From contig CAVVEU010000024.1 in assembly GCA_963747235.1 (NCBI GenBank), positions 192,001-256,000 of the forward strand: a stretch of 64,000 nucleotides of DNA, read 5' to 3'. This document shows, piece after piece, positions 3,224 to 53,503 of this stretch; the stretch's first letter is position 1; each line of letters begins with the position of its first letter. The notes beneath the pieces were generated by a model, which saw nothing but the letters and a program-made list of their open reading frames with translations, had not been told where the DNA came from and searched no databases. Made by a program: the position numbers and the translations under genes. The DNA is from an uncultured Candidatus Rokubacteria bacterium. Lineage in GTDB: Bacteria; Methylomirabilota; Methylomirabilia; Rokubacteriales; CSP1-6.

Positions 3224-3424
3224 AGTTATGCGTGCTTACCGACGTCCGTCGAGGATCAGCTCCAGTACGACCGGCAGCCAAGAGTTCTTATAACCATATG
3301 AATAACAAGTACTAAATACTCCATAGCGCATCGCGTCGGCGTCGCCCATCGGCCCCCGAGCAGGTAGCCGGTTGGTGACCAAGAGCGTCGTCGCCGAGAC
3401 GCTCCTCGTAGCTAGGTGGGGGCG

Positions 3425-4386
3425 ATGACGGCCGCTTCGCGAGTGGACCTGCTACGCAGCATGCTCCGCATCCGCCGCGTCGAGGAGACGCTCGCGGATC
3501 TCTACCCGTCGCAGGAGATGCGGACGCCGACGCACTTCTCGATCGGCCAGGAGGCGGTCGCGGTCGGCGTGTGCGCCGCGCTCCGCCGCGACGACATCGT
3601 CTACAGCGGCCACCGCTGTCACGCCCACTACCTGGCCAAGGGGGGCGACCTCGCCGGCATGGTGGCCGAGCTCTACGGACGCGAGACGGGTTGCGCGCGA
3701 GGACGTGGCGGCTCCGTCCATCTCAACGATCCCGACGCCGGGATCATCGCGTCCTCCGCGATCCTCGGCCAGACCATGGCGGTCGCGGTGGGAACCGCGC
3801 TCGCCTTCGCGATGGACGGCCGGGATCAGGTCGCGGTCAGCTTCTTCGGCGACGGGACCGTGGAGGAGGGCATCTTCCACGAGACACTGAACTTCGCGGT
3901 GATGCGGCGCGCCCCGGTGCTCTTCGTGTGCGAGAACAACGGCTTCTCGACCCACACACGGCTCGAGGTTCGCCAGCCGGTGACGGTGCCGATCCACGCG
4001 CGGGCCGCCTCGTACGGCATGCCCGCGCGCCTGGTGGACGGCAACGACGTCTTCGCGGTCTACGCCGCGGCCCGCGAAGCGGTCGCGCATCCCGGCGCGG
4101 CGCCGGGCCGTTCTTCCTCGAGTGCACCACCTACCGGTGGCGCGAGCACGTCGGCCCGCTGTGGGACTACGACAAGGGATATCGGACGAAGGCCGAGGTC
4201 GATGCGTGGATCGCCCGCTGCCCCATCCGACACGCGTCCGAGCGGCTCTTGGGCGACGGGGTGTGCACGCCGGACGAGATCGCAGGCGATGAAGCGGGCA
4301 AGCCAGGACGAGGTGGACGCGGCGGTCGTCGCGGCGCGCGCGCTCCTTCCCCGACGGTCGAGGACCTGACCACCGGCACCTACTGA
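3425..4386 (+). CDS. TPP-dependent dehydrogenase E1 alpha-like subunit (frameshifted)
   Basis: HFSIGQEA, SGHRCH, GRGGSVH, GDG..EEG..ENN TPP motif, YRWREHVG. Confidence 0.88.
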
Positions 4387-4393
4387 GGACGCC

Positions 4394-5431
4394 ATGAGAG
4401 CGACTCGACCTACGTGGGAGGCCATCAGCGAAGCGACCGTCCAGTGCATGGAAGCGGACCCGGCATCTTCGTGACCGGGATCGGCGTCGACGACTTCAAG
4501 GGGATCTTCGGCACGACCGCGGAGGCCTACCGTCGGTTCGGCCCCGCGCGCGTCTTCGACATCCCGAACGGCGAGAACGCGATGACCGGCATCGCCATCG
4601 GCGCTGCGGCGGTCGGCAAGCGTCCGGTCGTCGTGCATCCGCGCAACGACTTCATGTTCCTGTGCATGGACCAGCTCTTCAACCTGGCCGCCAAGTGGCG
4701 GTACATGTTCGGCAACCGGGGCGGCGTGCCGGTGGTGTTCCGCGGCATCGTGGGCCGCGGATGGGGGCAGGGCGCGACGCATTCCCAGAGCCTGCAGGCG
4801 GTGTTCGCGCACTTCCCGGGACTCTACGTGGCCTTCCCGCGTCCCCCGCCGACGCGAAGGGCTTGCTGGTCAGCGCGCTCCAGGGCACCGGCCCGGTGGT
4901 GCTGCTCGAGAATCGCGCGCTCTACGAGCTCGAGGGCGAGGTGCCGGAGGAACCCGTGGCGGTGCCGTTCGGGAAGGGCAAGGTCGTGCGGCCCGGGACC
5001 GACGTCACGATCGTCGGCGTCTCGCTCATGGCCTACGAGGCGGTGCGGGCTGCCGAGATCCTGGCCGAGCAGGGCGTCGACGCCGAGGTGATCGATCTGC
5101 GCAGCGTCGCGGCCGCTCGACGAGGAGATGATCCTGCGATCGCTTCGGAAGACGGGGCGCCTGGTGGTGGCCGACACGAGCTGGGCTCTCTGCGGCGTCT
5201 CCGCCGAGGTCGCCGCGATCGCGGCCGAGAAGGGTTGGGACCATCTCAAGGCGCCGGTGCGTCGTGTCACGCCGCCCGATTGCCCGGCGCCGGTCTCGCA
5301 CCCGCTCGAAGACGCGTTCCATCCCAACCCGCTGACCATCGCGCAGGCGTGCCTCGACGTGCTGAGGACGGGGACGCCGATCGGGACGCGGCGTCACCGA
5401 CGTCCAGGCCACCTTCGCCGGACCATACTGA
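4394..5431 (+). CDS. TPP-dependent dehydrogenase E1 beta-like subunit (frameshifted)
   Basis: RVFDIPNGEN, GRGWGQGATHSQ, PVVLLENR, EVIDLRS, KTGRLVVAD spread over several frames. Confidence 0.85.
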
Positions 5432-5432
5432 G

Positions 5433-6160
5433 CTGACGCACCGCCGTCGCGTCAGCGTGTTCGTGCCTGCGTACAACGAGGCGGAGAATCTCGAGCGCGC
5501 GGTCGCGACATCGTCTGGGCCGCGGAGCAGGTGCTCGCGAGTACGAGATCCTGATCGTCGACGACGGCAGCCGCGACGCGACGGGACAGCTCGCCGACCG
5601 CCTCGCCGAGGAGAACGCTCGGATCCGGGCCGTCCACCAGCCTCGGAATCTGGGCATCGCGGCGGCCTACGAGCGCGCGCTCGACGAGGCGAAGCTCGAC
5701 TACTTCAGCTTCCTCGCCGCGCGACGGGGAGATCGCTCGCGACTCCATCCGCGACATCTTCGCGGCCGTCGGGCCGGCTGACATCGTGGCGCCCGTACCA
5801 CCAGAACCCGCGGGCGCGCCAGCTCCACCGCCGCTTGCTGACCTGGACGTCGACCCGCTCGTCAACGTGCTCTTCGGCCTTCGCATGCAATACTACCAGG
5901 GCCCCTGCATCTATCCGATCGCGCTCGCGCGCAGTCCTGCCGAAGACCGCGGGCGGCTTCTACTTCCTCACCGAGATGCTCGTCCACGCGCTACACGCCG
6001 GCTATAGCTACGTCGAGGTCGGGCCTCACCCACCTGGACCGCTCCCACGGCCGATCCAAGGCCGTGTCCGCCCGGAATATCCTGAAGGCGCTGCGGGCGA
6101 TCGCGCAGCCGTGGTGGTCGATCCACGTGCGGCACGGGCTCCGTCGCGCGGAGGTCCTGA
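5433..6160 (+). CDS. GT2 polyprenyl-phosphate glycosyltransferase (DPM1/ArnC/GtrB-like; frameshifted, start uncertain)
   Basis: VSVFVPAYNEAENL, EILIVDDGSRD, PRNLG, FLTEMLV. Confidence 0.75.
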
Positions 6161-6161
6161 C

Positions 6162-7178
6162 ATGGCGAGGACATCGTCCGACGGTGCTCGTCACTGGCGG
6201 CGGTGGCTACGTCGGAGCCGTGCTGGTCCCGAAGCTCCTGGCCGCCGGTTATCGGGTTCGGGTCGTCGATCTCTTTCTCTTCGGCGCCGACGTGCTGCCC
6301 GAGGACCCGGCCCTCGAGCTCGGTGAAGGCGGACATCCGGGACCGGGCGCTCCTCGAACGCCAGATGCGGGGGTCGATGCCGTCATCCACCTCGCGTGCA
6401 TCTCGAACGACCCGAGCTTCGAGCTCAATCCGACGCTCAGCCGGTCGATCAACTACGACTGCTTCGAGCCCCTCGTCGACGTCGCCCGGCGCGCCGGAGT
6501 CGCGCCGCTTCATCTACGCGTCCACATCGAGCGTGTACGGCGTCAGCGACGCCCCCGACGTGACCGAGGACCATCCGCTCGTGCCGCTGACCGACTACAA
6601 CAAGTACAAGGGCATGTGCGAGCCGATCCTGCTCCGGTATCAGGCGCCCGACTTCACGACGGTCATCATCCGGCCGGCCACGGTCTGCGGGTACTCGCCG
6701 CGGCTCCGGCTCGATCTGACGGTCAACATCCTCACCAACCTCGCGGTCAACAAGCGGCGCATCACGATCTTCGGCGGGCGCCAGAAGCGCCCCAACATCC
6801 ACATCGAGGACATCACGATCTCTACGTCGAGCTGCTCGACATGCCGGACGAGCATGATCGCGGGGCAGACCTTCAACGCCGCCTACCAGAACCACACGGT
6901 CGCCGAGCTCGGCGAGATGGTGCGAGACGATCGTGAGCGCGGGAGATGCCCGAGCTGGGCCCGATCGCGGCTCGAGACGGCGCCGAGCAACGACACTGCG
7001 CTCGTATCACGTCTCGTCCGAGAAGATCAAGCGCGAGCTCGGCTGGTCGCCCGAGCGCACCATCGAGGACGCGGTCGATCGACCTGTGTCGCGCCTTCCG
7101 GGCCGGGCGGATCCCGACCCGCTCGACGACATCCGCTACTACAACGTCAAGACGATTCAGGCGTCGGGCCTGGCCTGA
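6162..7178 (+). CDS. NAD-dependent epimerase/dehydratase (extended SDR) 1 (frameshifted)
   Basis: VLVTGGGGYVG, IHLACISNDPS, YNKYK, RPATVCGYSPRLRLD. Confidence 0.85.
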
Positions 7179-7181
7179 GCG

Positions 7182-8180
7182 ATGCCGCGCGCCGTCGTCA
7201 CCGGCGGAGCGGGCTTCATCGGCAGCCACATGGTCGATCTGCTGGTCGACCGAGGGCTATTCAGGTCGTCGTGATCGACAACCTGGTCACCGGGCCGACG
7301 CGAGAATCTCGCGCAGCACGCGGCGCGATCCGCGCGTCGAGCTTCGCACCGTGGACATGTGCGCGCTGGCGCCGGACGACGCCGCTGTTCCGCGACGCCG
7401 ACTATGTGTTCCACTTCGGCGGCATCGGCGACATCGTGCCGTCGATCGAGCGGCCGCTCGACTACATGCGGGCCAACGTCGACGGCACGCTCGCGGTGCT
7501 CGAGGCCGCGCGGCGCGCCGGGCGTGCGCAAGTTCGTCTACGCGGCCTCGTCGTCGTGCTACGGGCTCGCCACCGAGCTGCCGACCACGGAGGAGGCCGC
7601 CGATCCGGCCCGAGTATCCGTACGCGCTCAGCAAGTACCTCGGCGAGAGCGCGGCGCTGCACTGGGCCCAGGTGTACCGGCTGCCCGTGATCTCGATCCG
7701 CATGTTCAACGTCTACGGTCCACGCGTGCGCACCACCGGCGCCTACGGCGCGGTGTTCGGCGTGTTCCTCGCGCAGAAGCTCCACGGCAAGCCGTTCACC
7801 GTCGTCGGAGACGGCACCCAGCCGCGGGACTTCGTGTTCGTGACCGACGTGGCGCGGGCGTTCCTGCTGGCCGCGGAGTCCGCCGAGACGGCGAGGTCTT
7901 CAACCTCGGGCGCGGGCGACCCGCAGACCGTCAACCGGCTCGTGGAGCTGATCGGCGGCGACGTGGTGCACCTGCCGAAGCGCCCGGGCGAGCCGGACTG
8001 CACGTGGGCCGACATCGGCAAGATCCAGCGGCGCGCTCGGCTGGGAGCCCGAGGTGTCGTTCGAGCAGGGCGTCGCGGCGATGCTCGGCCAGATCGAGGA
8101 CTGGCGGGCGGCGCCGCTGTGGACGCCCGAGAACGATCGAGGCGGCGACCCACACGTGGTTCGAGCACCTGGCGCGATGA
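7182..8180 (+). CDS. NAD-dependent epimerase/dehydratase (extended SDR) 2 (frameshifted)
   Basis: VVTGGAGFIGSH, ASSSCYG, PYALSK, RMFNVYGPR, GDGTQxRDF. Confidence 0.87.
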
Positions 8181-9736
8181 AGGCCGACTACCGGCAGAAG
8201 ATGAAGACGCTCGAGGAGCTGGCGCGCGGCCATCGGCCCGCGGCCCCGCGCACGAAGACGCGTCATCATGTGCCACGGGATGTTCGACATCGTCCATCCG
8301 GGACATCTGCGGCACCTGATGTACGCCAAGGAGAAGGCGGACTCCTGATCGCGAGCCTCACCGCCGACGAGCACGTCACCAAGGCGGCCTTCCGGCCGTA
8401 CGTGCCCGCAGGAGCTGCGCGCGGCCAACCTCGCCGCGCTCGAGATGGTCGACTACGTGATCATCGACCCGAACCCGACGCCGATCGCAGCACATCAAGT
8501 ACCTGCAGCCCGACTACTTCGCCAAGGGCTACGAGTACTTCTCCGAGGGCGTGCCCGCCAAGACGCAGGAGGAGATCGACACGCTGGAAAGCTACGGCGG
8601 CGAGATCGTGTTCACGCCCGGCGACGTCGTCTACTCCTCGTCGCGCGCTGATCGAGGCGGCCCCGCCGAAGCTCGGCGTCGAGAAGCTGCTGGCCCTGAT
8701 GGAGTCGGAGGGCTTCGGGTTCGATCGATCTTCGCGAGACGCTCTCCGGCAGATGCGACGGGTCTGCGGGTGCACGTGGTCGGCGACACGATCGTGGACA
8801 CCTATAGCTACTGCTCGCTGCTCGGGCGCCACCGCGAAGTCGCCGACCTTCAGCGTCAAGCACGAGCGGACCGAGGTGTTCGCGGGCGGCGCCGCGGTGG
8901 TAGCCAAGCACGTGAAGGCGGCGGGCGCCGACGTCTCCTTCTCGACCGTCCTCGGCAACGACGCGGCCAAGGACTTCGTGCTGAAGGATCTGGACGAGGC
9001 CGGGGTCGTGGTGCACGCCTTCGTCGATCGGACCCGGCCGACCACCCAGAAGGAGCGGTTCATCGCGGACGGCTACAAGATGCTCCAGGTCGACCGGGTC
9101 GACAACCGGCGCGGTCTCGGAGCAAGGCGCTGCGCGTTCCTCAGCGACTCGATGGCGGACAGCCGCGCGGACGTGGTGATCTTCAGCGACTTCCGCCACG
9201 GCATCTTCAACCGCCAAGACGCATCCGCGATCCTGCGCGAGCGCGTGCCCGGCCGGCGCGCTCAAGGTGGCGGACAGCCAGGTGTCGAACCGCTGGGGCA
9301 ATATCCTGGACTTCACCGACTTCGATCTGCTGACGCCGAACGAGCGCGAGGCGCGGTTCGCGCTCGGCGATCAGGATTCGGTGGTGCGGCCGCTCGCGCT
9401 CGCAGCTCTTCCGGCGCGCCCGGCTGCAAGCACTGATCCTGAAGCTCGGCGAGCGCGGGCGTCCTCGGCTACCGCACGCCCGGGCCCGATGCCGCGCGAG
9501 TTCTTCACGGTCGACAGCCTCGTCGAACGCCTGGAGGACCCGATCGGCGCCGGCGACGCGCTCCTCGCGCTACGCGTCGCTCTCGCTGGCCGCCACCCGG
9601 CAACATCGTCATCGCCTCGATCCTGGGCTCGGTCGCGGCCGCCCTCGCCTGCGAGCGTCAGGGCAACGTGCCGATCGCCCCGGACGAGGTGGACGAGAAG
9701 ATCAACCTGATCGAAAAGCGGGCGCACTTCGAATGA
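8177..9736 (+). CDS. Bifunctional nucleotidyltransferase / PfkB-family sugar kinase (HldE-like, reversed domain order; frameshifted)
   Basis: N-terminal FDIVHPGH (HxGH); C-terminal VVGDTIVD, FSDFRHG, TPNEREAR, DPIGAGD. Confidence 0.82.
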
Positions 9737-10650
9737 GATACGTGGTCGTCGGCCTCGGCAACATCGGCGGCAAGCGCAAGCGCGGTGCTGGGTGACCGGT
9801 GTGTGGCGACCGTCGACCCGTTCAATCCCGCCGCCGACTTCCGCCACCCGACGACTGCCCCGACAACGCGCTACGATGCGGCGGTGCTGGCCGTGCCGAA
9901 CGACGTGAAGCTCCGACTGATGGAGTTCTTCCTCGACGCGCGGCAAGCACGTGCTGGTCGAGAAGCCGCTGATCCTGGACCGCCGAGACGGCCGCGCACC
10001 TGAACGGGTGAGCCGGGCCCCGGCGCCGATCTGGTATACGTCGTACAACTTTCGGTTCGAGCCCAACGTGGTGGCCCTCAAGCGGCACCTGCGAGGCGGG
10101 CACGATCGGACGCCTCTACCGGGTGCGGATGTTCTACGGCAACGGCACGGCCGGGAACATCGCCGGTACGTGGCGGGACAGCCGGCTCGGAGTCCTCGAG
10201 GACATGGCCCGCCACCTGATCGACCTGACCGGCTTCGTGTTCGGCCGCTTCGGTGCCGAGTTTCGCGTGTGGGAGCGTCGCGGCCACGAGCTCAAGGGCT
10301 TCGACCACTGCATCCTCGCCACATCCGATCGTAGCATCGACCATCGAGTGCAGCTTCCTGTCCTGGAAGAATCGGTGGCGGATCGAGGTGCTCGGCGAGG
10401 AGGGCGCACTCGAGATGAACGGGCTCACGAAGTGGGGCAAGAGCGAGCTTCTGATCCTCCGCCGGCGCCGGCCCAGCGGCGTGCCGGACGAAAGCCGGGA
10501 GGTGGCGCACGGCCCGGATCCCACCTGGGCCGCCGACATCCGGCACTTCGAGGAGATGGTCGCGACCGGGGTGACGTCGTGCGAGAACGACCTGTGGCTG
10601 TCGCGCACGGTGCAGCGGCGGCCGCCGGCCGCCCCGAGGGCGGCTCGTGA
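9733..10650 (+). CDS. Gfo/Idh/MocA family oxidoreductase (frameshifted)
   Basis: MRYVVVGLGNIG, HVLVEKP, YNFRFEP, D..RHLID. Confidence 0.8.
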
Positions 10651-11943
10651 GCGACCGCCCGACCGGCTTCCTCGGGCCTCTCCCACCTCGGGATCATCTC
10701 GAGCGTCGGCTGGGCCTCGCTCGGATCGCGGTGGTCGCGGTCGACCTCGATCGTGGGCCGGTCGAGTGGCTCCGCCGGGGCGCGCTGCCGGTGCACGAGC
10801 CCGCGCTCCCGGAGCTCTTCGCGGCGCATCGAGAGCGGATGAGCTTCTCGAGCGATCCCGCCGCGCTGGCCGAGTGCGACCTCGTCATCGTCTCGCGGGA
10901 CATCCCCACGGACGCAGACAACGGGAGCGACGTCTCGGTCGTCGACCGTCTGATCGAAGCCGCCGTCCCGCACCTCCGGCCCGGATCCACCCTGGTCCTG
11001 ATGAGCCAGGTTTCTCCCGGATCCACGCGCGCTCTCGCCGCGCGGATCGATCTCGCCGGCCGGGGGCCGGGATCGCGTGTACTACTGGGTCGAGACGCTC
11101 ATCTTCGGCAACGCGGTGCAGCGGTTCCTCCATCCGGAGCGGATCATCGTGGGCTCCGCCGATCCGTCCCGGCCGCTTCCCGCCGCGCTCGACGAGGGGC
11201 TCCGTCGCTTCGACTGCCCGATCCTGCCGATGGGCTACGAGAGCGCGGAGCTCACCAAGACCGCGATCAACCTCTACCTGTTCGGGGCGGTGACCTACGC
11301 CAACACGCTCTCCGATCTCTGCGAAGCGGTCGGGGCGGACTGGTCCGAGATGGTGCCCGCCCTTCGTCTGGATCGCCGCATCGGACCCGCCGCCTACATC
11401 CGCCCGGGCCTCGGCATGGCGGGAGGGAACCTCGAGCGCGACCTCGTCACGCTTCGTGGGCTCGGGCAGCGCCACGGCGTCGACGTCGCCTACGTCGAGA
11501 CGCTGCTCGCCCACAATACTCGTCGCTATCGCTGGGTCCAGCGCCAGCTCCAGCGATCGCGGTGCTCGATCGCGATGCCCGGGCGGTGGTCGCGGTGTGG
11601 GGCCTCGCCTACAAGAAGAACACGCGGTCGACCAAGAACTCGGTGGCCCTGCGGGTGATCGACGACCTCGGGGCCGCGCCGAGGTGCGCGCGTACGACCC
11701 GCTGGTCAAGGCGCAGACGGCGGACGTGGCGCGCCACCCTGGTGGAAAGCGCGACACCGCCCTCGACGGCGCCGACTGCCTGCTGATCCTCACCGACTGG
11801 GACGAGTTCGCCACGCCGCCTGGGGGCGGGTTCCGAGCGATGCGCCGGCCAGTGGTCATCGATTGCGTCGGGGTGATGGACGCGCCGTCGCCGACTTGCC
11901 GGGCGTCGAGTACGTGGCGATGGGCCGTCCGGGGCGCCGATGA
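10647..11943 (+). CDS. UDP-glucose/GDP-mannose dehydrogenase family protein lacking the catalytic Cys (frameshifted)
   Basis: HEPALPEL, PERIIVG, SAELTKTAIN, RLDRRIG, PGLGMAGGNLERD, WGLAYKKNT, LTDWDEF. Confidence 0.82.
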
Positions 11944-12475
11944 GCCGCCGCGCGGCCTTCCTCGATCGCGACGGCGTGCTGGTCGAGACGTTCGTGCGCG
12001 ACGGCCGCGCGCACGCCGCGGTCACCCTCGCGGAGTTCCGGATCTCCCCGGAGGCGCCCGCGCAGGTCGCACGGCTCAAGGCGGCCGGGTCTGCGGCCGA
12101 TCGTCTTCACCAACCAGCCCGAGGTCGCACGCGGCACACTCACCCCGGAGACGCTCGACCCCATGCACGCTCCTCTGCGCGCGGCCGTCGACGTCGACGA
12201 CATCCTCGTGTGCGTGCACGCCGATGGCGACGACTGCGCGTGCCACAAGCCCCGGCCCGGCATGCTCGAGGCGGCGGCGCGGAACTGGACGCTCGACCTG
12301 CCCGCCTCGTTCGTGGTCGGCGACCGGTGGCGGGACATCGACGCGGGGCGAGCCGTCGGCTGCTACACGGTGCTCATCGACCGCCCTTACAGCGAGTGCG
12401 CGTCGCGGACGCCCGCGTCGCCGATCTGGCCGACGCGGTCGACGTGGTGCTCGCCCGAATAGAGGATCCCAATGA
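11940..12475 (+). CDS. gmhB: HAD-IIIA sugar bisphosphate phosphatase (GmhB-like; frameshifted)
   Basis: AFLDRDGV, TNQP, CACHKPRPGML, VGDRWRD. Confidence 0.8.
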
Positions 12476-13070
12476 ACTTCGTCGCCAAGTACCTCGCCGA
12501 GGCCTCGCAGGTGGCGGCGCGGATCGATCACGCAGCGGTCACGCGCCTGGTCGATCTCTCGCGGAGGCGCGCGACGGCGGCGGCCGGCTGTTCGTCCTCG
12601 GCGTCGGCGGCAGCGCCGGCAACGCCTCCCACGCGGTCAACGACTTCCGGAAGATCGCGGGCTTCGAGGCCTACACGCCCACCGACAACGTCTCCGAGCT
12701 GACCGCCCGCATCAACGACGACGGCTGGGACACCTCGTTCGCCAACTGGCTCAGGGGGAGCCGGCTCGGCCCCCGGGACTGCGTGCTCGTCTTCTCGGTC
12801 GGCGGCGGCGACGCGGAGCGCAAGGTGAGCATCAACCTCGTGCGGGCGCTGGAGTACGCCAAGACGGTGGGGGCCCGCATCGGCGGCATCGTCGGCCGCG
12901 ACGGCGGCTTCACCGCCACGGTCGCCGACGCGTGCGTGATCATCCCCACCGTGAACCCGGAGCGGGTCACCGCGCACACCGAGGCGTTCCAGGCGGTGGT
13001 CTGGCACCTGCTCGTCTCCCACCCCCGCCTCCAGGCCGCGCCGATGCGCTGGGAGAGCCTGACCCGATGA
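12472..13070 (+). CDS. gmhA: SIS-domain phosphosugar isomerase (GmhA-like; frameshifted)
   Basis: GVGGSAGNASHAVND, LTARINDDG, SVGGG, HTEAFQ. Confidence 0.8.
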
Positions 13071-13944
13071 GCGGGATGCCGGCGCGGGTCGTGATCCTGG
13101 GCGCCAGCGGCTTCCTCGGCCGGGCGCTCCACGCCCGGCTCGCGGGCGACGGCGTCGAGGTGGTCGCGCATTCGTCACGGACGCTGGACCTCACGCGGGC
13201 GGATGCCCTGGCCGTCCTCGACGGGGTGGTGGGCCCGGCACCGCGCTCGTGTTCGCGTCCGCCTTGACCCCGGACCGGGGCCAGACCCCCGCCACTCTTC
13301 TTGCCAACACCACGATGGCCGCGAACCTGGCCGCCTATCTCGAGGGGCGTCGCCTCGCCCGCCTCGTCTACGTGGGCTCGGACGCGGCCTACGGCTTCGG
13401 CGAGCCGCCGGTCACCGAGGACACGCCGGTCTCGCCCGCCGGCTACTACGCGATCGGCAAGTACGTGGGGGAGCGGGTGATGGAGAGCGCGGCCCGCGCG
13501 GGCGGCTTTCCGCTGCTGACGCTCCGGGTGACCGGCGTCTACGGCCCCGGCGATCCGCACGCCTCCTACGGGCCCAATGCCTTCGCGCGCTCCCTGGCGC
13601 GTGACCGGACCGTCCGGATCTTCGGGGCGGGGGAGGAAGAGCGCGACCACGTCTACGTCGACGACGCGGCCCGGGTGATCGCGGGCCTGCTCCGGAGCGG
13701 CGCCGACGGCGTCTACAACGTGGCCACCGGGCAGAGCCAGTCGTTCGCGGACGTGGTGAAGACGATTCGCGACCTCGTGCCCTACGAGGTCACGGTGACG
13801 AGCGTGGCGCGGACGGGGCCGATCACGCATCGCCGGTTCGACACCGGCCGCCTGGCCCGCGCGCTGCCCGGCCTGCGCTTCACGCCGATCCGGGACGGCC
13901 TCCGGGCCACCCTCGTCGCCTTTGGAGCGATCGCGAATGGCTGA
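13067..13944 (+). CDS. NAD-dependent epimerase/reductase (SDR) 3 (frameshifted)
   Basis: VILGASGFLG, SDAAYG, YAIGK, VYGPGD, RDHVYVDD. Confidence 0.82.
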
Positions 13945-14589
13945 GGTCGATCTCCTCGACCGCTATCCGCGCGCCACGCGCGACATCGCGGCCCGCGCCG
14001 CCGCGGCCCCGGCCCAGCGCGAGGTGGCGACGCGATTCGCTCGCGAGTACTTCGACGGCGAGCGCGGCCAGGGCTACGGCGGCTACCGCTACGACGGCCG
14101 CTGGGTGCCGATCGCCGAGCGCATGCGCGACCACTACCGGCTGCGGGCCGGCGACCGCGTGCTCGACGTCGGGTGCGCCAAGGGCTTCCTGCTCCACGAC
14201 CTGCGCCGCCTGTCGGGGGGCTGCGCGTCGCGGGCCTCGACATCTCGGCCTACGCGCTGGGCCAGGCGAAGGACGACGTGCGGCCGTTCCTCGCACGCGG
14301 CACGGCGGAGCGGCTGCCGTTCGCGGACAAGGCGTTCGACCTGGTGGTGTCGATCAACACCCTGCACAACCTCGACCGCGCGGACTGCATCCGCGCGCTC
14401 GGCGAGATCGAGCGGGTGAGCCGCCGCCACCGCTACGTCCAGGTCGACTCGTGGCTCGACGAGACGCAGCGCGAGAAGTTCGAGCGCTGGCAGCTGACCG
14501 CGCTCACCTATTCGGATCCGGAGGGCTGGCGGCGCCTGTTCCGCGAGGCCGGCTACACCGGCGACTACTACTGGACCGTGACGGAATGA
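13937..14589 (+). CDS. Class I SAM-dependent methyltransferase (frameshifted)
   Basis: EYFDG..GYGGYRYDGRW, VLDVGCAKGFL, LPFADKAFDLVVSINTLHN. Confidence 0.85.
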
Positions 14590-14614
14590 CGGAGCGGGCC
14601 CGGAGGGAGACATC

Positions 14615-15287
14615 ATGAAGATCTTCGTCGATTCGGCGAACCTGGTGGAGATCGAGGAGGCGCTGGAGCGCGGGTTTCCCGCCGGCATCACCACGAACCC
14701 GTCGATCCTGGCCAAGGAAGAGAAGGCGGACTTCCGAGATCACATCAAGAAGATCATCGAGCTCGTGCAGCGATACGGCTACGACATCCCGCTGAGCGTC
14801 GAGGTCTTCTCGACCCAGCCGGAGGAGATGATCGACCAGGCCGAGGACTTCGTGCGCGAGTTCGGCCACTACCCGAACCTGAACGTCAAGGTGCCGGTCG
14901 GCTGGGACGAGCTGCGCCGTGATCAGCGAGCTCGCCGGCGCGGGCATCCGGGTCAACTGCACCTGCTGCATGACGTATAGCCAGGCGGTCATGGCGGCGG
15001 CGGCGGGCGCCAACTACGTGAGCCTCTTCTACGGTCGCATCCGCGACGTGGGCTACGACGCGGCCTCGGTGGTCCGCTCGGTTCGCGAGACCTTCCGCGA
15101 GCGCGCGGTGCCCTGCGAGATCATCGTGGGCAGCATCCGGCACATCGCGGACATCAGCGAGGCCTTCCAGGCCGGCACCGACATCGTCACGGTGCCCCCG
15201 AAGTTCTTCCGGCCGATGGTCGGCCACCCCAAGACCGACGAAGCGGTGCAGCAGTTCGTGACCGACTTCCAGAAGTGGATGCAGTAG
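14615..15287 (+). CDS. Transaldolase / fructose-6-phosphate aldolase family (frameshifted)
   Basis: IFVDSAN, GITTNPS, VKVP (Schiff-base Lys), YVSLFYGR, GSIR, HPKTD. Confidence 0.87.
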
Positions 15288-15826
15288 ATGAAAGGGCTGG
15301 TCCTCTCCGCGGCGGCCCTGGTGCTCCTGGTGCTCGGGAGCGCGGTCGCGCTCCGCTTCTACCGCGGGAACAAGGAGTTCCGGGTGTTCCTCGGCGCGTT
15401 CGCCGCCGCGGTGGTGCTGTACACCGGGACGTTCTGGCTGCTCCCGCCCGATCTGGGTTTCCTGCCCGCGGGCTGGCGGGAGACGGTCGCGTGGGTGGAC
15501 TTCGGGAACGGCCTCCTGCTCCTGGTCCTGATGTTCCACGGCTACTGGTGCTTCTCCTACTTCGCCTGTCTGAGCCCGTCCATGAGCGTGATGGTGTCGC
15601 TCCGGCTCCGGGGCCGCGAGGGCATGTCGCGCGCCGAGGTCCTCGGCGATTCAGGGCAGCGATCAGCCGGTCAACCTCATCTTCCAGCGCCGGCTGCCCG
15701 AAGCTCCTGCAGGGCGGCTACGTGCGGGAGGAGGCAGGCGCGTACCGGATCCTCGCGCCGGGTGAGCGGGTCGCCGCGCTGGGATCCTTCCTCGAGCGCC
15801 TGATCAACGCCCAGGTGGGCACTTAG
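15288..15826 (+). CDS. Small membrane protein (about 3 TM) with a C-terminal winged-helix-like tail (frameshifted)
   Basis: Hydrophobic N-terminus; PPDLGFL motif shared with the next gene. Confidence 0.6.
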
Positions 15827-15836
15827 GGCCGCCGCG

Positions 15837-16361
15837 GTGCTGAAGGGTCTCGTGCTCTGCGGACTGCTCATCACGACGTGGCTGATCGTGCAGGCCGCGG
15901 TGTTCCATCTCGTGGCGCCCCGGAAGGCGTTCGCCTCGATGCTGGCGGCCTTCGCTCCCATGGTGCCGCTCTACCTCGTGCTCTATCTCATGACCCCGGC
16001 CGATCTGGGATTCCTCTCGCCCGCGTTCGTGGGCGCGGACTGGCGGCTCGGGCTCGTGAACGGGCTCGTGCTCCAGATGTTCCTGTTCCTCACCGCCGGC
16101 TTGTTCTATTCCCACGCGGACCGCTCGATCACCGTCCGGCTGCTGATCGAGCTGGCCCGCGCGCCCCATCAGCGCCTCACGCTCGCCCAGATGCAGGCGG
16201 TGTGCGGGGTGGAGGTGCTCATGGCCGATCGCCTGGAGATCATGCTGGCCAATCGCTTCCTGAGGGCCCAGGGCGACCGCTTCGTGCTCACCCCGAAGGG
16301 CTGGATCGGGGGCAGCATCGGGCTGGCGGCCCGCAAGATCCTCCGCATGAAGGCCCTCTAG
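15837..16361 (+). CDS. Paralogous small membrane protein with a C-terminal winged-helix-like tail
   Basis: PADLGFL..NGL..RSITVRLLIEL..RL..LTPKG. Confidence 0.65.
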   Translation: MLKGLVLCGLLITTWLIVQAAVFHLVAPRKAFASMLAAFAPMVPLYLVLYLMTPADLGFLSPAFVGADWRLGLVNGLVLQMFLFLTAGLFYSHADRSITVRLLIELARAPHQRLTLAQMQAVCGVEVLMADRLEIMLANRFLRAQGDRFVLTPKGWIGGSIGLAARKILRMKAL

Positions 16362-16453: not shown

Positions 16454-17452
16454 ATGACGGTAGGCGCGCCCCGGTCCGCCCGGGAAGCGCTCCAATCGGG
16501 CGCGATCAGTCTCGAGGCGCTCCGAGCCGTCCACCGGATGCGCGACGGCCGCAGCGCGCTGGACGTGCTCGGCGCGCTGGCGTCGTTCGTGGCGGTGCCG
16601 GTGGTCTTCGGGCTCTATCCCCGCTGGTGGACCGCCGCGCTCCTGGCGCTCTGGGCGATCCGCAACTTCAACTGCGCGGCGCAGCTCGTCCACGAGAGCG
16701 ACCACGGCACCCTGTTCCACGACCCGCGCCTGAACCAGGGATTCGGCAACCTCTTCGCGTACCTCCTCGGCTACACGCGCGGGGGGCACCGGACCGCGCA
16801 CATGGATCATCACCTCTACCTGAACACCGATCGCGACCCGGACATCATCTTCAGCCAGCCGGAGGCGTCGGCGGCCGCGATCCTGAAGGGCCTGCTCGGC
16901 GATCTCGTCTTCGTCTCCGCGATCAAGCGCCTGCTCCAGTACTCGCAGTCCGACCGCGCCACGTACTCCGTCTCCCCGTGGCGGCGCCTCACGCCGGCCT
17001 ACTTCGTCCGCATGGCCGCCACGATGGTCCCGGTGGCCATCACGCAGCTCGTGCTCCTGGCGCTCTTCACGATGGCGGGCGGGCCCTGGGCCTACCTGCT
17101 CCTGCACGTCCTGCCGATCATGACGCTCTATCCGCTCCAGATCCGGGTCCGCTCGATCGCCGAGCACGGCTTCGAGGCGGGCTACCATCCGGAGTCGCCG
17201 CAGGAGGCGTGGGTGACGCGGACGAGCCGGTTGAACCTGGTCGAGCGATGGATCATCGCGCCCTTCGGCCAGTATCTCCACTATGAGCACCACGTGTTTC
17301 CCAGCATTCCCAACTACAACCTGCCCGAGGTGCATCGTCTCCTCGTGGCCGCGGGGATCCCGGTGCCCACCAATCGGAGCTATTTCGGCTTCCTGTTCCA
17401 GAAGATCCGGGCCGAATGGCGGAGCGGGTCGGCCGGCCGCGAGCGGGCATGA
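16454..17452 (+). CDS. Membrane fatty-acid desaturase/hydroxylase family protein
   Basis: His boxes HESDH, HMDHH, AEHG, HYEHHVFP; RBS GAGGA before the ATG. Confidence 0.88.
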   Translation: MTVGAPRSAREALQSGAISLEALRAVHRMRDGRSALDVLGALASFVAVPVVFGLYPRWWTAALLALWAIRNFNCAAQLVHESDHGTLFHDPRLNQGFGNLFAYLLGYTRGGHRTAHMDHHLYLNTDRDPDIIFSQPEASAAAILKGLLGDLVFVSAIKRLLQYSQSDRATYSVSPWRRLTPAYFVRMAATMVPVAITQLVLLALFTMAGGPWAYLLLHVLPIMTLYPLQIRVRSIAEHGFEAGYHPESPQEAWVTRTSRLNLVERWIIAPFGQYLHYEHHVFPSIPNYNLPEVHRLLVAAGIPVPTNRSYFGFLFQKIRAEWRSGSAGRERA

Positions 17453-18381
17453 ACGCCTCCGTGCGCGACGCGGAGCTGACCGGGGCGGTGTGCGATCTTT
17501 GCCGATCGGACCGGCACGCGGTACCGGTGCTGGAGGCGGGTGACTACGAGTATGGCGTCCCCGGTCGCTTCACGCTCTCCCACTGTACCGCGTGCGACCT
17601 GTACTACCAGACGCCGCGACCGGCCCGCGAGGTGATCCCGAGCTACTACCCGCCGACCTACGCGGTCTACGGGGACGATCCGGTGGTGGGATGGTTGTTC
17701 CGCATCACCTACTGGCTGGACGCGCGGCGGGTGGCGCGCCTCATCGGGCCTCGCGGCCGGGTTCTCGACGTGGGCTGCGGCGCGGGCGGCGCCCTGAACG
17801 CCCTCGCCGGGGTGGGTGAGTGGGACGTCTGCGGTCTCGAGCTCGACGCGGAGGCGGCCCGTCAGGCGGTCCGGCGCGGGTTCAACGTGCGGCAGGGCGA
17901 CCTGGTCGACACCGACTTCCCCCCCGAGTCGTTCGACCTCATTCGCATGGGCCACGTGATCGAGCACGTCCGCGATCCGATCGCGACCCTGCGGCGCGCC
18001 TGGGAGCTTCTCCGGCCGGGAGGCATTCTCTTCGGAGAGACGCCGAACATCGACTGCTGGGATTTCCGGCTCTTCGGGCGCTACTGGGGCGCGCTGCACT
18101 TCCCCCGCCACATCGCGCTCTTCAGCCCCGAAACCATCCGGGCCGCCTGCGAGCAGACCGGATTCGTGGGAACGCGCATCGTCCCCCGGCTGCGCACGGT
18201 GGGGTGGAGCGCGGGCATCCAGAACTGGCTCGCGGACCGGGCGGGGCTCCGGGTTCCGTCGAACGGCCGCGTCCGCTGGTATCCGGCGCTGATCGCACCC
18301 TTCTTGCCGGTCACCATCTTCCAGGCGCTGGTGAGCCGCACCGCCACGATGGCGTTCGTCGCCCGCCGTCCCGAGGCCTAG
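17449..18381 (+). CDS. Class I SAM methyltransferase with an N-terminal CxxC..CxxC domain
   Basis: CDLC/CTAC, VLDVGCGAG, HVIEH, HFPRH. Confidence 0.88.
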   Translation: MNASVRDAELTGAVCDLCRSDRHAVPVLEAGDYEYGVPGRFTLSHCTACDLYYQTPRPAREVIPSYYPPTYAVYGDDPVVGWLFRITYWLDARRVARLIGPRGRVLDVGCGAGGALNALAGVGEWDVCGLELDAEAARQAVRRGFNVRQGDLVDTDFPPESFDLIRMGHVIEHVRDPIATLRRAWELLRPGGILFGETPNIDCWDFRLFGRYWGALHFPRHIALFSPETIRAACEQTGFVGTRIVPRLRTVGWSAGIQNWLADRAGLRVPSNGRVRWYPALIAPFLPVTIFQALVSRTATMAFVARRPEA

Positions 18382-18387
18382 CCCGTC

Positions 18388-19066
18388 ATGGCGCTCCGCT
18401 ACGCGACCGAGCTCGGCGCCTTCGACCGGATCGAACGATCTGGCCTTCCAGGTGCGGCGCCGGATCTTCGAGCGATTCATGCGCGAGTGCGCGCCCGGCC
18501 CCGACGCGCGCGTGGCCGACTTCGGCGTGTCCGGTCATCGCGACCATCCGGTGCACTACTTCTTCGAGAGCCTGTACCCGTACCGGCAGCAGGTCACCGC
18601 GATCGGACGGGCGGCGGAGGAGGCGGGCTGGTTCGAGGAAGCCTTTCCCGGCCTGCGCTTCCTGGAGGCGGATCTCCGGGAGATCCCGCTACCCGACGGG
18701 TACTTCGACTACGGGATCTGCAACGCGGTGGTCGAGCATGGGGGAACGCGCGAGCAGCAGCGGGCTCTCGTCGCGGAGGTCTGTCGCGTGAGCCGGTGCG
18801 TGCTCTTCACCACGCCCAACAAGCGGTTTCCGCTCGAGCTGCACACCTGGCTGCCGCTGCTCCACTGGCTGCCGGATGCGGCGTACCGGGCCAGCCTGCG
18901 CCGCCTCGGTCTCGACTACTTCGCGGAGATCGAGAACCTGAACCTGCTCGACCCGGAAGCGTTCCTGTCGCTTTTCCCGAGATCCCGTCAGAATCGCCTG
19001 CTGAAGTCCGGTCTCCCGCTCCTGCGCTCGAATCTCGTCTGCCTTTCCCGCGCCGGCGGACGCTAG
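18388..19066 (+). CDS. SAM methyltransferase domain protein (indel near the 5' end)
   Basis: VADFGV, CNAVVEHGG, TTPNKRFPLELHTWLPLLHWLP. Confidence 0.78.
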
Positions 19067-19082: not shown

Positions 19083-20818
19083 TCACGGCACGACGCGCTT
19101 GAGCACCAGGCGCGCCCCGTCCATCCCCATCTCGTAGGGCACTCGGTCCGGCAGGGCCTGCATGAGCGCTCGGTTCCGGTCCGCGTCGAGGAAGTTGACG
19201 AAGAGGACCCGGTCGCTGAAATCGGGGCGATTGTTCCGGCGGTAGTAGGCCCAGGTGTAGGGCGGCACCGCGGTTCCCGGCAGGCTGTGGACGAAGACGA
19301 TGGCCCGCTCCGGCACCTCGAGCTCCACCAGGTCGTAGGGGGCGTTCACCAGATCGGCGCTGGCCCGCAGGGAGCCGGCGTAGACCGGCAGAAGGTGATC
19401 ACCGCACAGAGGGTCGCGACCAGCGGAAGCGAGGCCACGAACGCGGGCATGCGCGCGGGGGCTCCCGCGCGGCGGCTCAGCTCGATCAGCCGCACGAAGC
19501 CGCTGGCGGACAGGAGCACCAGCGGCGCGGCGAGCTCGGCGTAGTGCGCCGGGCCCGTGCTGCTGATGCTGGCCGCCGAGATGCCGGCGTAGAGGAGGAG
19601 CACCCCCGCGCAGCTCGCGAACAGGCGAAGCCCGCCGGGGAGGCGATGGAAGAAGGCCGCGAGCACCAGCGACACCGGCCATCCGAAGAGCCAGAAGTTG
19701 AAGCGGGCGAGCGTGTGGCCGAGCTCGTGGATCGACGGGAGCGGCGCCGGAGCCTTGACCGCCTGCCCGACGAGCCCCCAGTTGCGAAGGCGGCTGAAGG
19801 TCTGGTAGCCGCTCTCGAACGCGGAGCCGGAGAGCGCGTGCTGGTAGTCGAGGAGGAGGAGCCCCGCCCCGATCACCACCAGAGCGGAGGCGCCGGCTCC
19901 CAGGAGCGCTCGCGGAGAGCGCGTCGCCCACAGACGCATCGCGAGCCAGATCAGCCAGGGCGCCGCGAAGACCGGCGCGGAGAAGGGCCGGGTCAGGGTC
20001 GCCCAGCCCAGGGCGGCGCCCGCGAGGAGCCACCAGCGGAGCGCGCGCGGATCCTCGTGGGCGCGCAGCGCGGCGTAGACGAACGCCATGAGCAGCACCG
20101 CGACCGTCGAATGGGCGAGCAGCGTGGCGGACGAGAACACGAAGTACGGGGAGATCAGGAGCATCGGCAGGGCCAGTAGCGCGGTCCGCTGGCCGAAGAG
20201 GCGTCGCGCGATGGCGAACGCGAGCAGCACCGTCACGGTGGCCGATACCGTGGTCACCCAGTGGAGCAGTCCGAGCCATTCCCCGATCGCGAGTGCGGCG
20301 GGGTGCCCGGGGAAGTAGATCCCGTACATCTTCCCGCCGTTGATGATGAGGAACTGGTTCTCGAAGAACGCGCGGAGCGCGTCGGGCGGGGCCGGCACCA
20401 GGATCTTCCCGGACGCGAACATCTGGGCCATGAAGAGGTAGGCGTTCTCGTCATCGCTGATCGCCGCGTCCTTCAGGACCATGAGGCGGGTCAGCGTGGT
20501 GAGGAGGAACGTGCCCGAGCACGCGCCGAAGACGAGGGCGCGAACCTCGCGGGGGTTCAGGGAATCGAGGCGCTCGATGGCATCCAGGATCCGCGGGCCG
20601 GCCGCGTCGCGGACCGCGAACGTGAGGAGCACGATGGCGGGGATGCCGAAGAGGAGATAGTGCAGGAGAAAGGCCAGCTCCCCGGGGAACCATCCGTGCC
20701 GGCCATACCAGATCTGGTAGTTCGCGAAGTTGAGACCGGCGATCCAGATCTCGGCGATACAGAGGAGGCCGGTCAGGCCGAGGAGCAGGCTCTTCACCCG
20801 CGGGGTCACGGAGCTCAC
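19083..20818 (-). CDS. ArnT/PMT-like GT-C membrane glycosyltransferase (indel near 19385)
   Basis: About 12 TM segments; ISDDENAY acidic loop, YFPGHP, TRPF; periplasmic C-terminal tail in the 19083 frame. Confidence 0.75.
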
Positions 20819-28368: not shown

Positions 28369-28388
<20 letters not shown>

Positions 28389-29175
28389 TCGCCGCGCTCG
28401 CGCCGGGGGTCCACCGCCGGCGGCCGAGATACGCCTCGATCACGCGGGGATCCCGCTGGACATCAGAGGGCCGGCCCTCCGCGATCTTCTCCCCGTAGTC
28501 GAGCACCGTGACGCGATCCGAGACCTCCATCACCACCCGCATGTTGTGCTCGATCAGGAGCAGGGTGAGCTTGCGCTCCTCGACCAGCCGGCGCAGCAGC
28601 GCCATGAGGCCGCGGGCCTCGCCCTGGGTCATGCCCGCGGTCGGCTCGTCGAGCAGCAGCAGCGCCGGATCGGAGGCGAGGGCGCGCGCCAGCTCGAGGC
28701 GCCGCTGGTCGCCGTAGGGCAGGTTGCGCGCGAGCTCGTTGGCCTTGTCCCGGAGACCGGCCACCTCGAGGAGCTCGGCGCCGTGCTCCCACTGCCGCCG
28801 CTCCTGGTCCCGCCAGCGCTGGTTCCGGGTGATCACGTCCCAGAAGCTCAGCGGGACCCGGCTGTGCATGCCCACCAGCACGTTCTCGATGGCGGTCATC
28901 CGGGGGAACAGGCGGATGTTCTGGAAGGTGCGGCAGATGCCGAGCGCGGTGATCTCGTCGGGGCGCCGGCCGAGGACGGGGGCGCCCCGGAAGGTCACGA
29001 CGCCTTCCTCCGGCACGTAGATCCCGGTGAACACGTTGAAGAACGTGGTCTTGCCCGCCCCGTTGGGCCCGATGATCGAGGCGATGTGGCCTTCCTCGAG
29101 CGTGAAGTCGACCGTGTTGAGCGCGGTCAACCCGCCGAAGCGCTTGCTCACGGCCCGGGCCTCGAGCAGCGGCAT
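28369..29175 (-). CDS. livG: Branched-chain amino acid ABC transporter ATPase
   Basis: MPLLEARAVSKRFGG, GPNGAGKTT, RTFQNIRLF, LPYGDQRR, IEAYLG. Confidence 0.9.
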
Positions 29176-31404: not shown

Positions 31405-31433
31405 CGGCAGTCAGCGGGAAGGCGGGGAGCAGT

Positions 31434-38292: not shown

Positions 38293-38303
38293 GCGCGAGG
38301 GGC

Positions 38304-38928: not shown

Positions 38929-38938
38929 CGCGGCGCCC

Positions 38939-45099: not shown

Positions 45100-45148
45100 C
45101 GTCTTCGAGCTCAGAGGCCCCTGCGGCTGGCGGAAGCCAGGGGCAAGC

Positions 45149-48945: not shown

Positions 48946-48971
48946 CAGGTCAGTCCCCCCCCTCATACCGT

Positions 48972-50044: not shown

Positions 50045-50048
50045 CGGC

Positions 50049-51661: not shown

Positions 51662-51758
51662 ATTCGGCTCCCGGCCTTCTCCTGACTCTGACTCCACTTC
51701 ACTGAAGAAGCGAATCAGCTGTCAGCCCGGTGCGTTGTGGAAGGAAACTCTATCGTGG

Positions 51759-51794
51759 TGACAGTTTATAACGGTGCGGCATTTAAACTGTCAA
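51759..51794 (-). promoter_or_regulatory. sigma70-like pilM promoter embedded in a 10-bp inverted repeat
   Basis: Minus strand TTGACA-N18-TATAAA; arms TGACAGTTTA / TAAACTGTCA. Confidence 0.6.
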
Positions 51795-51899
51795 CACTTC
51801 TTGCGCTACGGCGTGCGTTTCCGTGTTTCGCCGACCCCGACCGGTGGGGTTTCCGCCTGCACGAAGACCATCGGCGTGTGTTCCGTTCGGAACAGGCGC

Positions 51900-53057: not shown

Positions 53058-53058
53058 C

Positions 53059-53493: not shown

Positions 53494-53503
53494 GCGGGCT
53501 GAC

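Follow-up and report, generated by a model that had tools for sequence, protein, structure and literature searches.

Heptoses, Kdo and nonulosonic acids account for most of what is known of higher-carbon sugars in the envelopes of bacteria. In lincosamide synthesis, LmbR makes octulose 8-phosphate from ribose 5-phosphate, and the kinase LmbP and nucleotidyltransferase LmbO of that pathway are presumably separate proteins. The portions of PMC12945683 and PMC4351081 considered here list LmbR (transaldolase), LmbN (isomerase), LmbP (kinase), LmbK (phosphatase), LmbO (nucleotidyltransferase), LmbM (epimerase), LmbL (dehydrogenase), LmbZ (oxidoreductase) and LmbS (aminotransferase), and have GDP-octose converted into GDP-lincosamide by LmbM, LmbL, CcbZ and CcbS. 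For Campylobacter jejuni, the function of Cj1427 as a GDP-heptose C4-dehydrogenase is described in the portion of PMC10680097 considered here. The subject of this article is an operon of 15 genes (13 kb, 3372–16361, forward strand) in a 64,000-nucleotide stretch of DNA from a Candidatus Rokubacteria metagenome-assembled genome (MAG); the whole stretch is called the window, and positions are counted from its first letter. We propose that the product of this operon is a higher-carbon sugar, nucleotide-activated and heavily tailored, that is destined for an envelope glycoconjugate, and we give this reading a probability of roughly 0.6. As to the backbone of that sugar, an octose, with the transaldolase giving octulose 8-phosphate from ribose 5-phosphate, ranks first, if tentatively; a heptose follows as a serious possibility, and anything else is unlikely.

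The window (positions 192001–256000 of contig C24 in the host MAG, G000, which comprises 5.57 Mb in 42 contigs and is 88% complete) has a G+C content of about 70%. Because tblastn of orthologous proteins onto the window fails for the genes that are most broken, gene limits were transferred by nucleotide alignment from the intact ortholog in a genome of the same genus (G005, locus L014). There, 15 successive genes are called, from E1 alpha, one subunit of a thiamine-diphosphate enzyme, through two family-less proteins of about 175 residues. By this mapping, the genes of the window lie on a single strand and abut or overlap. A Pfam scan of 70 stop-to-stop forward-strand frames of at least 50 codons each, between 3412 and 19541, returned, in order, E1_dh; Transket_pyr with Transketolase_C; Glycos_transf_2; two Epimerase domains; PfkB; GFO_IDH_MocA; three UDPG_MGDP_dh domains; HAD; SIS_2; a third Epimerase; an S-adenosylmethionine (SAM) methyltransferase; and TAL_FSA in two frames. 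A preliminary description of the window had drawn attention to 6162–15287, which is the core of the operon. Every family that it named is present within that segment, and its two limits are the exact start of the first short-chain dehydrogenase/reductase gene (SDR1) and the exact stop of the transaldolase gene. To its list can be added the SAM methyltransferase (Pfam frame 13945–14586) and, outside its limits, E1 alpha, E1 beta and a family 2 glycosyltransferase (GT2) upstream and two small membrane proteins downstream. Promoter and terminator scans at both ends of the operon found none.

Distribution of the cassette

The bifunctional HldE-like protein of the operon was used as the query for related loci. 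The search gave 282 confirmed relatives, the best 80 of which were kept as loci; the 15 G005 proteins were compared with these by tblastn, and gene presence was counted in the 48 loci flanked on each side by 6 kb or more. Within the best 80 of the 282, the HldE-like relatives are 57–74% identical across phyla and bear more than 12 phylum-level labels. Relatives are labelled Candidatus Rokubacteria, Methylomirabilota or Rokuibacteriota, and other carrier MAGs are labelled Chloroflexota, Polyangiales/Haliangiales, Nitrospirota, Verrucomicrobiota, Planctomycetota, Acidobacteriota, Bacillota, Binatia, Bipolaricaulota, Bdellovibrionota, Elusimicrobia, Patescibacteria and Alpha-, Beta- and Gammaproteobacteria. 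The cultured carriers are Magnetospirillum sp. UT-4 and Azospirillum rugosum, the latter with a partial set. Three further contigs with the cassette are filed as Candidatus Nitrosocosmicus (L024), uncultured Streptomyces (L046) and Bordetella parapertussis (L061). The first, nominally archaeal, is 88% identical to a Rokubacteria protein, and the G+C content of the second is only 61%; all three are probably mis-binned or mislabelled.

In most phyla the gene order is SIS–HAD–transaldolase–SDR1–SDR2–HldE-like–Gfo–dehydrogenase–SDR3–methyltransferase, and E1 alpha/beta is often close by. Rokubacteria, Chloroflexota, Bacillota and one Planctomycetales MAG have the arrangement E1 alpha–E1 beta–GT2–SDR1–SDR2–HldE-like–Gfo–dehydrogenase–HAD–SIS–SDR3–methyltransferase, with the transaldolase at one end. 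The Gfo gene is present in 47 of the 48 loci, the dehydrogenase in 44, HAD in 42, the methyltransferase in 39, the transaldolase in 38, SIS in 36 and E1 beta in 31. No match to the HldE-like protein was obtained at E 1e-50 in a plasmid collection. A search of literature text found no paper on the cassette; going by that text, the cassette as a whole appears to be undescribed.

The host genome has a second, mostly intact version, a paralogous cluster on the same contig 273 kb downstream of the operon (L016; G000:C24:470000-489000). Its first part comprises E1 alpha, two SDRs, a reversed HldE-like gene, Gfo, the dehydrogenase and a short-chain dehydrogenase split over two frames. SIS, HAD, transaldolase and two family-less open reading frames follow. 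Beyond these come a further HldE-like/SIS/SDR set, two DegT aminotransferase genes and a gene resembling E1 beta.

Predicted enzymes and proposed route

The transaldolase gene (14615–15287, forward strand) encodes a short protein of 223 residues. Its TAL_FSA match in the window falls into two pieces (14582–14977 and 14883–15284), with one net frame-shifting indel near 14915; the ortholog scores 148 bits. Two forms of the enzyme, only about 30% identical to each other, occupy the cassette, and one or the other is found in at least 38 of the 48 full loci. Type A, the form in the window, is 35% identical to the housekeeping-type transaldolase of its own genome, which lies on another contig, and 65% identical to the transaldolase of the paralogous cluster; type B is 53–68% identical across phyla and lies about 2.8 kb upstream of the HldE-like gene. 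The retention in one cassette of two forms so far apart implies that the activity is needed and not incidental, and the transaldolase can be regarded as a dedicated, constant part of the cassette and not a chance neighbour, as had been supposed from the window. Ten of the 48 loci were counted as having no transaldolase. The genomes of five of these ten were searched, and three held a type A gene at 67–89% identity: one just outside the flank on the same contig, one inside the locus and frame-broken, and one on a contig with unverified linkage. Of the other two genomes, one gave a 41% match and one none.

There is evidence from conserved residues as to what the transaldolase does. In an alignment with E. 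coli FsaA (A1), both forms retain the Asp, the Schiff-base Lys, the Glu and the Phe; Glu and Phe occur in all eight non-E. coli sequences, where FsaA has Gln and Tyr. We take Glu/Phe versus Gln/Tyr to separate transaldolases from fructose-6-phosphate aldolases, and on the residue roles so assumed the signature marks both cassette forms as probable true transaldolases. The solved relatives agree in rank, ordinary short transaldolases scoring 149 bits and aldolases about 70–79 bits; the TIGR00875 equivalog cut-off is not reached (164.4 versus 245.95 bits). Among the 120 closest proteins found in a protein search, identities are 78–94% and all names are of Rokubacteria type or generic. Both forms also keep the Arg/Ser/Arg positions, which are presumably phosphate-binding in transaldolase. 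Since these are kept, and since the transaldolase stands beside SIS and HAD in the common gene order, sugar-phosphate substrates are indicated. A role for the transaldolase in extending the nucleoside diphosphate (NDP)-sugar aldehyde from the cassette dehydrogenase (C7+C3) was considered and set aside.

The candidate activation enzymes are the HldE-like protein (8177–9736), an HAD-IIIA phosphatase resembling GmhB (11940–12475) and a SIS isomerase (12472–13070), all on the forward strand. The HldE-like protein, 511 residues long in G005, has CTP_transf_like at residues 31–140 and PfkB at 197–490 (Pfam), with nucleotidyltransferase and kinase regions at 22–158 and 189–506, which is the reverse of the canonical HldE order; HPGH is found in the N-terminal nucleotidyltransferase and DPVGAGD in the C-terminal PfkB kinase. 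The nucleotidyltransferase half goes undetected in the fragments of the window and is clear in the intact ortholog. None of the set reaches the NCBIfam equivalog of the heptose pathway: the scores are 50.7 versus a cut-off of 209.45 bits for GmhA, 143.1 versus 521 for HldE, 112.7 versus 178 for GmhB and 125.4 versus 274.6 for HldD. The HAD protein does reach TIGR01662 (80.1 bits, cut-off 44.6). In 49 homologs of the SIS protein, SHAVNDFRK is conserved where E. coli GmhA has HFAEEL, and there is a six-residue insertion in the STSGNS loop; the corresponding loop of GmhA is, as we take it, phosphate-binding. By these motifs, the cassette SIS forms a conserved subfamily of its own. On the GmhA model it scores 46–59 bits in five other carrier genomes, three of which also hold a more GmhA-like gene elsewhere (152–200 bits).

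The dehydrogenase (10594–11943, forward strand) has all three domains of the UDP-glucose/GDP-mannose dehydrogenase family (PF03721, PF00984 and PF03720) and passes TIGR03026 (218.8 bits, cut-off 189.8). The motif G-x-x-G-G-N-L-E-R-D occurs in 66 of 66 homologs, the operon protein reading AGGNLERD; the alignment sets Asn against the Cys of GGSCFPKD in UDP-glucose dehydrogenase 4a7p, and Arg takes the place of the next Lys. In this family, uronic acid is formed by way of a thiohemiacetal and then a thioester on the catalytic Cys. With that Cys replaced by Asn, the four-electron route to a uronic acid should be unavailable, and the sequence would lead one to expect a single oxidation, to a ketone or aldehyde. 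Both this substitution and the four sub-threshold equivalogs bear out the earlier view that the set is not simply canonical ADP-heptose enzymes plus Ugd, and the transaldolase found with the cassette in at least 38 of the 48 full loci points the same way. A search of the ESM Atlas with the dehydrogenase returned generic names only. The Gfo/Idh/MocA oxidoreductase (9733–10650, forward strand), which adjoins the dehydrogenase in the window and in 44 of 48 loci, retains its GLGNIG and EKP motifs.

The remaining candidate tailoring genes, on the same strand, encode three SDRs, a methyltransferase and an E1 enzyme. SDR1 (6162–7178; PF01370), an extended SDR, has 6vo6 as its best solved relative (E 9e-37, ahead by ten orders of magnitude), an entry that we take to be the C. 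jejuni GDP-heptose C4-dehydrogenase Cj1427. SDR2 (7179–8180) resembles GalE/WbpP-type 4-epimerases, with matches to UDP-glucose 4-epimerases in the PDB at 183 bits; it is the most conserved tailoring gene, at 57–73% identity across phyla and 78–92% among the closest Rokubacteria loci. SDR3 (12932–13944, the true start being probably near 13063) resembles GDP-fucose synthase and Rmd/RmlD-type reductases, and the gene that follows (13937–14589) encodes a class I SAM-dependent methyltransferase. E1 alpha (3372–4386; PF00676) and E1 beta (4394–5431; Transket_pyr and Transketolase_C) are of pyruvate/acetoin dehydrogenase type, the intact E1 alpha (L014:1839-2879) scoring 220 bits. Branched-sugar antibiotic clusters offer precedents for thiamine enzymes that add a two-carbon branch to a keto sugar, and by analogy E1 alpha/beta could do the same here.

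For the destination of the product, the evidence comes from the glycosyltransferases and the setting. The GT2 (5372–6160, forward strand; PF00535), a candidate polyprenyl-phosphate sugar synthase, has no predicted transmembrane segment and gives weak matches to ArnC/TuaG-type NCBIfam models. It belongs to the Rokubacteria, Chloroflexota and Bacillota versions of the cassette, beside two of which there are genes of the GT-C glycosyltransferase type, in Bacillota a YfhO-like one. In the window, an ArnT-like GT-C membrane glycosyltransferase of the PMT_2 family (19346–20818, reverse strand; PF13231, 58 bits) is encoded 3 kb downstream of the operon on the opposite strand, and synteny with G013 is kept as far as 20958. 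The operon itself ends with U1 (15288–15826) and its paralog U2 (15837–16361), family-less small membrane proteins with three predicted helices each, followed in U1 by a soluble tail. The neighbourhood of the host is of Gram-negative type, with a PilQ secretin, PilM/O, PilS/R with sigma-54, a prepilin peptidase and many tetratricopeptide repeat (TPR) proteins, and no non-ribosomal peptide synthetase (NRPS), polyketide synthase (PKS) or resistance gene was seen in the window. The operon GT2, the nearby PMT_2 gene, this neighbourhood and the lack of an NRPS in the window all favour the suggestion, already made from the window, that a surface glycan is likelier than an antibiotic. The accompanying remark that there is no aminotransferase is correct for 3372–16361 and does not extend to the paralogous cluster, with its two DegT genes.

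From protein families and gene order, the following route can be proposed. The dedicated transaldolase would make a ketose phosphate from sugars of the pentose phosphate pathway, and the SIS enzyme would convert this into an aldose phosphate. C1 would then be phosphorylated by the reversed HldE-like protein through its PfkB domain at the C-terminus, the HAD-IIIA phosphatase would take off the distal phosphate, and the N-terminal nucleotidyltransferase domain would yield the NDP-sugar. The Cys-less dehydrogenase, with the adjacent Gfo/Idh/MocA protein, may carry out one two-electron oxidation to a ketone or aldehyde; the three SDRs would oxidize, epimerize and reduce, the methyltransferase would methylate, and the E1 enzyme may attach a two-carbon branch to a keto intermediate. 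Finally, GT2 would attach the product to polyprenyl phosphate, and its transfer outside the cytoplasm would fall to a GT-C enzyme, perhaps the PMT_2 protein nearby.

Several observations weigh against this reading or against the octose within it. The case for an octose is one of logic (why have a dedicated transaldolase?) and of family-level resemblance, and the fused kinase and nucleotidyltransferase belong to the type seen in ADP-heptose synthesis (HldE). Gene clusters frequently include additional primary-metabolism genes for no other purpose than to raise precursor supply, so that the transaldolase could merely make sedoheptulose 7-phosphate. Even after a re-check, seven of the 48 full loci have no type A or type B transaldolase in or beside the locus; for two of the seven there is a type-A-like gene on another contig or with unverified linkage. 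The C6 of heptoses and octoses alike is a secondary alcohol, and the Cys-less dehydrogenase fits that of a heptose equally well. Outside the two clusters, G000 has no other GmhA-like gene above cut-off, so that one of them could simply supply heptose. It is also only from the neighbourhood that PMT_2 emerges as a possible periplasmic partner of GT2.

A rival reading is that the pathway is one for a modified heptose, in which SIS, the HldE-like protein and HAD act on sedoheptulose 7-phosphate to give an NDP-heptose that is tailored as in the Campylobacter capsule heptoses, and the transaldolase only boosts the supply of sedoheptulose 7-phosphate. We consider this possible. In its favour, the matches of the early enzymes are all to heptose-pathway families, albeit below cut-off, the kinase/nucleotidyltransferase is HldE-type, the best solved relative of SDR1 (6vo6) is by our assignment a GDP-heptose C4-dehydrogenase, no other GmhA-like gene is found in the genome, and both forms of transaldolase carry the ordinary transaldolase catalytic signature. 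Yet the characterized heptose pathways begin at sedoheptulose 7-phosphate with no dedicated transaldolase (the enzyme is mentioned nowhere in the portion of the C. jejuni heptose paper, PMC10680097, considered here). The genome already has a housekeeping-type transaldolase, the occurrence of two such divergent forms in at least 38 of 48 loci suggests a necessary step rather than an auxiliary one, and the SIS protein differs from GmhA in the loop that we assume to bind phosphate. It is far less probable, indeed very unlikely, that the final product is a free small molecule, such as a solute or secondary metabolite, with the NDP-sugar only as an intermediate. NUDIX hydrolase genes inside two distant versions of the cassette (L038 and L054), the many family-less neighbouring proteins and the family-level likeness to lincosamide sugar genes could be read in that way; the GT2 of the Rokubacteria, Chloroflexota and Bacillota versions, with GT-C beside two of them, the window with its lack of NRPS, PKS and resistance genes, and a spread over more than 12 phylum-level labels at 57–74% identity, which is more typical of envelope functions, tell against it.

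Within the proposal of a tailored envelope sugar, a plausible, if tentative, view of the cassette is that it is a widespread and undescribed route to a nucleotide-activated octose, in which octulose 8-phosphate is processed by specialized SIS, HldE-like and HAD enzymes, and the Cys-less dehydrogenase and Gfo protein carry out keto/deoxy chemistry on the side chain. To our knowledge, such side-chain chemistry is otherwise known only from lincosamine. The preliminary description had proposed an NDP-octose or other higher-carbon sugar; its departure from an ordinary ADP-heptose or Ugd set holds, a surface glycan is likely, and the octose itself stays conjectural. A conserved cassette of 10–12 genes that ranges from Rokubacteria to Alphaproteobacteria, Verrucomicrobiota, Planctomycetota, Acidobacteriota and Bacillota suggests a widespread surface sugar to which no structure has been assigned. 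It raises questions of enzymology, namely what the dedicated transaldolase produces, what role is played by a natural Cys-to-Asn relative of UDP-glucose dehydrogenase, and why the HldE domains are swapped. The cultured carriers, Magnetospirillum sp. UT-4 and, with its partial set, Azospirillum rugosum, make these questions testable. For annotation, the cassette genes should not be called gmhA, hldE, gmhB or ugd.

Frame breaks and neighbourhood of the window copy

Fourteen of the 15 operon genes carry frameshifts in the window, and about 121 net frame-shifting indels are counted at 3.4–16.4 kb against either the G013 or the G005 ortholog. The HldE-like gene is the most broken, with 26 net indels; SDR1 has 12, E1 beta seven and HAD three. 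E1 alpha, GT2, SDR2, Gfo and the dehydrogenase are also frame-broken, as is the C-terminus of U1, and U2 is the sole operon gene with no indel. In a plot of G+C by codon position, the forward-strand coding frame switches every few hundred bases at about 3.4–16.4 kb, whereas clean long frames are seen elsewhere. Indel density is 8–16 per kb at 4–11 kb, 1–5 per kb at 12–16 kb and about 0–2 per kb in most flanking bins. Nearly all of the indels are of 1 bp, with insertions and deletions in a ratio of about 2:1 and no link to homopolymers, and the excess of substitutions in the broken stretch is only a few percent. The indel-dense stretch has sharp edges at 3410 and 16362, which correspond to the limits of the operon, and its density steps down near 12 kb.

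A DNA search (40 relatives) found the operon at full length or nearly so in nine same-genus genomes, its 3.4-kb distal part being 82–90% identical in nine. Of three same-genus loci that were fetched, the operon is intact in G005, and long open frames are also found in G013 and G008. Among the pieces listed, contigs assembled from four soil runs come close to identity with the window only at about 14.2–17.5 kb, and those for 4–11 kb are about 90% alike. In another long-contig Rokubacteria MAG (L031; G047:C6:2136546-2137214) the cluster transaldolase is split across three frames, so that frame breaks in this operon are not unique to the assembly of the window.

We consider it probable that the broken copy reflects a poor MAG consensus in this stretch rather than natural decay, because the substitution excess is small and both the remainder of the window and the paralogous cluster read cleanly. 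It is unlikely that the operon is a true pseudogene array that decayed once it had become redundant with the paralogous cluster 273 kb away. Decay would account for frameshifts in 14 of 15 genes, for edges that coincide with the operon and for an intact paralogous cluster in the same genome, and at 6815, 8134 and 9220 the reporting soil-run contigs differ from the window by 1 bp, which can be counted on its side. Against the explanation by consensus error, none of the public sequencing runs has the operon stretch at near-identity (the best word share is 0.10). On the other hand, some 121 indels beside a substitution excess of only a few percent, almost all of them 1-bp events with a 2:1 bias to insertion, have the look of raw long-read error and not of bacterial gene decay. 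The orthologs of the same genus are intact or have long frames, and public data contain more than 100 near-identical transaldolase sequences of full length. As for the soil contigs in the dense part, at about 90% they represent relatives and are uninformative on this strain.

The other genes of the window are of less direct concern. After the operon and on the same strand, 16600–19063 encodes a membrane fatty-acid desaturase (PF00487) and two SAM methyltransferases. On the reverse strand, a 1013-residue frame at 28372–31410 has two branched-chain amino-acid ABC permease domains and an ATPase domain, and an 867-residue frame at 36406–39006 joins an N-terminal thiamine-phosphate synthase (TMP-TENI) to a long TPR region, an unusual fusion if it is real. 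A type IV pilus set at 44020–62114 (reverse strand; PilQ, PilO, PilM, prepilin peptidase, a PilS/PilR-like sigma-54 pair, PilC and a PilT/B-type ATPase) is interleaved with aroB and aroC.

Comparison with known pathways

The ADP-L-glycero-beta-D-manno-heptose pathway (GmhA, HldE, GmhB and HldD) draws on the same four protein families as the cassette and shares its logic, from ketose phosphate to aldose phosphate, bisphosphate, sugar 1-phosphate and NDP-sugar. The cassette differs in the scores of all four equivalogs, which lie far below cut-off, in its reversed HldE, in the motifs of SIS and in having a transaldolase in the unit. In common with GDP-heptose modification in C. jejuni (Cj1427, epimerases and C4-reductases), it would employ extended SDRs to tailor a nucleotide-linked higher-carbon sugar; the C. 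jejuni pathway, however, makes GDP-alpha-heptose by HddA/HddC and has no transaldolase, Gfo protein, Cys-less dehydrogenase or E1 enzyme. The cassette dehydrogenase shares with Ugd the three Pfam domains and a TIGR03026 score above cut-off, and departs from it in all 66 homologs by the change of Cys to Asn and of the next Lys to Arg.

For the later steps, the polyprenyl-phosphate glycosylation systems (ArnC/ArnT, CsbB/YfhO and GtrB/GtrA/Gtr) are the obvious comparison. They share with the cassette a soluble or peripheral GT2 and a nearby GT-C, a likeness of neighbourhood only; unlike them, the cassette has no recognized flippase, and U1 and U2 are family-less. In photosynthetic Bradyrhizobium, an 11-gene O-antigen operon is devoted to bradyrhizose in the portion of PMC4743980 considered here; in Bradyrhizobium sp. 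ORS285 it lies around BRAO285v1_100023. The gdh primers and encoded peptides in that portion gave nothing convincing in the cassette loci or in four Xanthobacteraceae MAGs. Among 401 genomes of the family, none matched the primers with two or fewer mismatches, and six did so with three mismatches, as against nine for a reversed control; those six loci have no cassette homolog, and one match lies inside a Meth_synt_2 gene.

The lincosamide octose set, as far as the source portions cited at the outset describe it, shares with the cassette a dedicated transaldolase, a SIS isomerase, a kinase, an HAD phosphatase, a nucleotidyltransferase, an SDR epimerase, a UDP-glucose-dehydrogenase-family enzyme and a Gfo/Idh/MocA oxidoreductase. 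In the cassette, by contrast, kinase and nucleotidyltransferase form one fused protein of HldE type. The operon locus is without aminotransferase, NRPS, mycothiol or resistance genes, and the cassette adds E1 alpha/beta, the methyltransferase, GT2 and the membrane proteins. Its host here is a Gram-negative-type Rokubacterium, and it is spread over many phyla. The earlier suggestion that the operon mirrors the lincosamide gene set is therefore sound for the transaldolase, isomerase, phosphatase, epimerase, dehydrogenase and oxidoreductase families and fails for the fused HldE-type kinase/nucleotidyltransferase and the missing aminotransferase; the parallel holds at the level of families only. 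Should the octose route nevertheless prove to be the true one, sugar chemistry regarded as peculiar to the lincosamides would turn out to be widespread in over a dozen phyla as a pathway to envelope glycans, and this pathway would perhaps be its evolutionary source.

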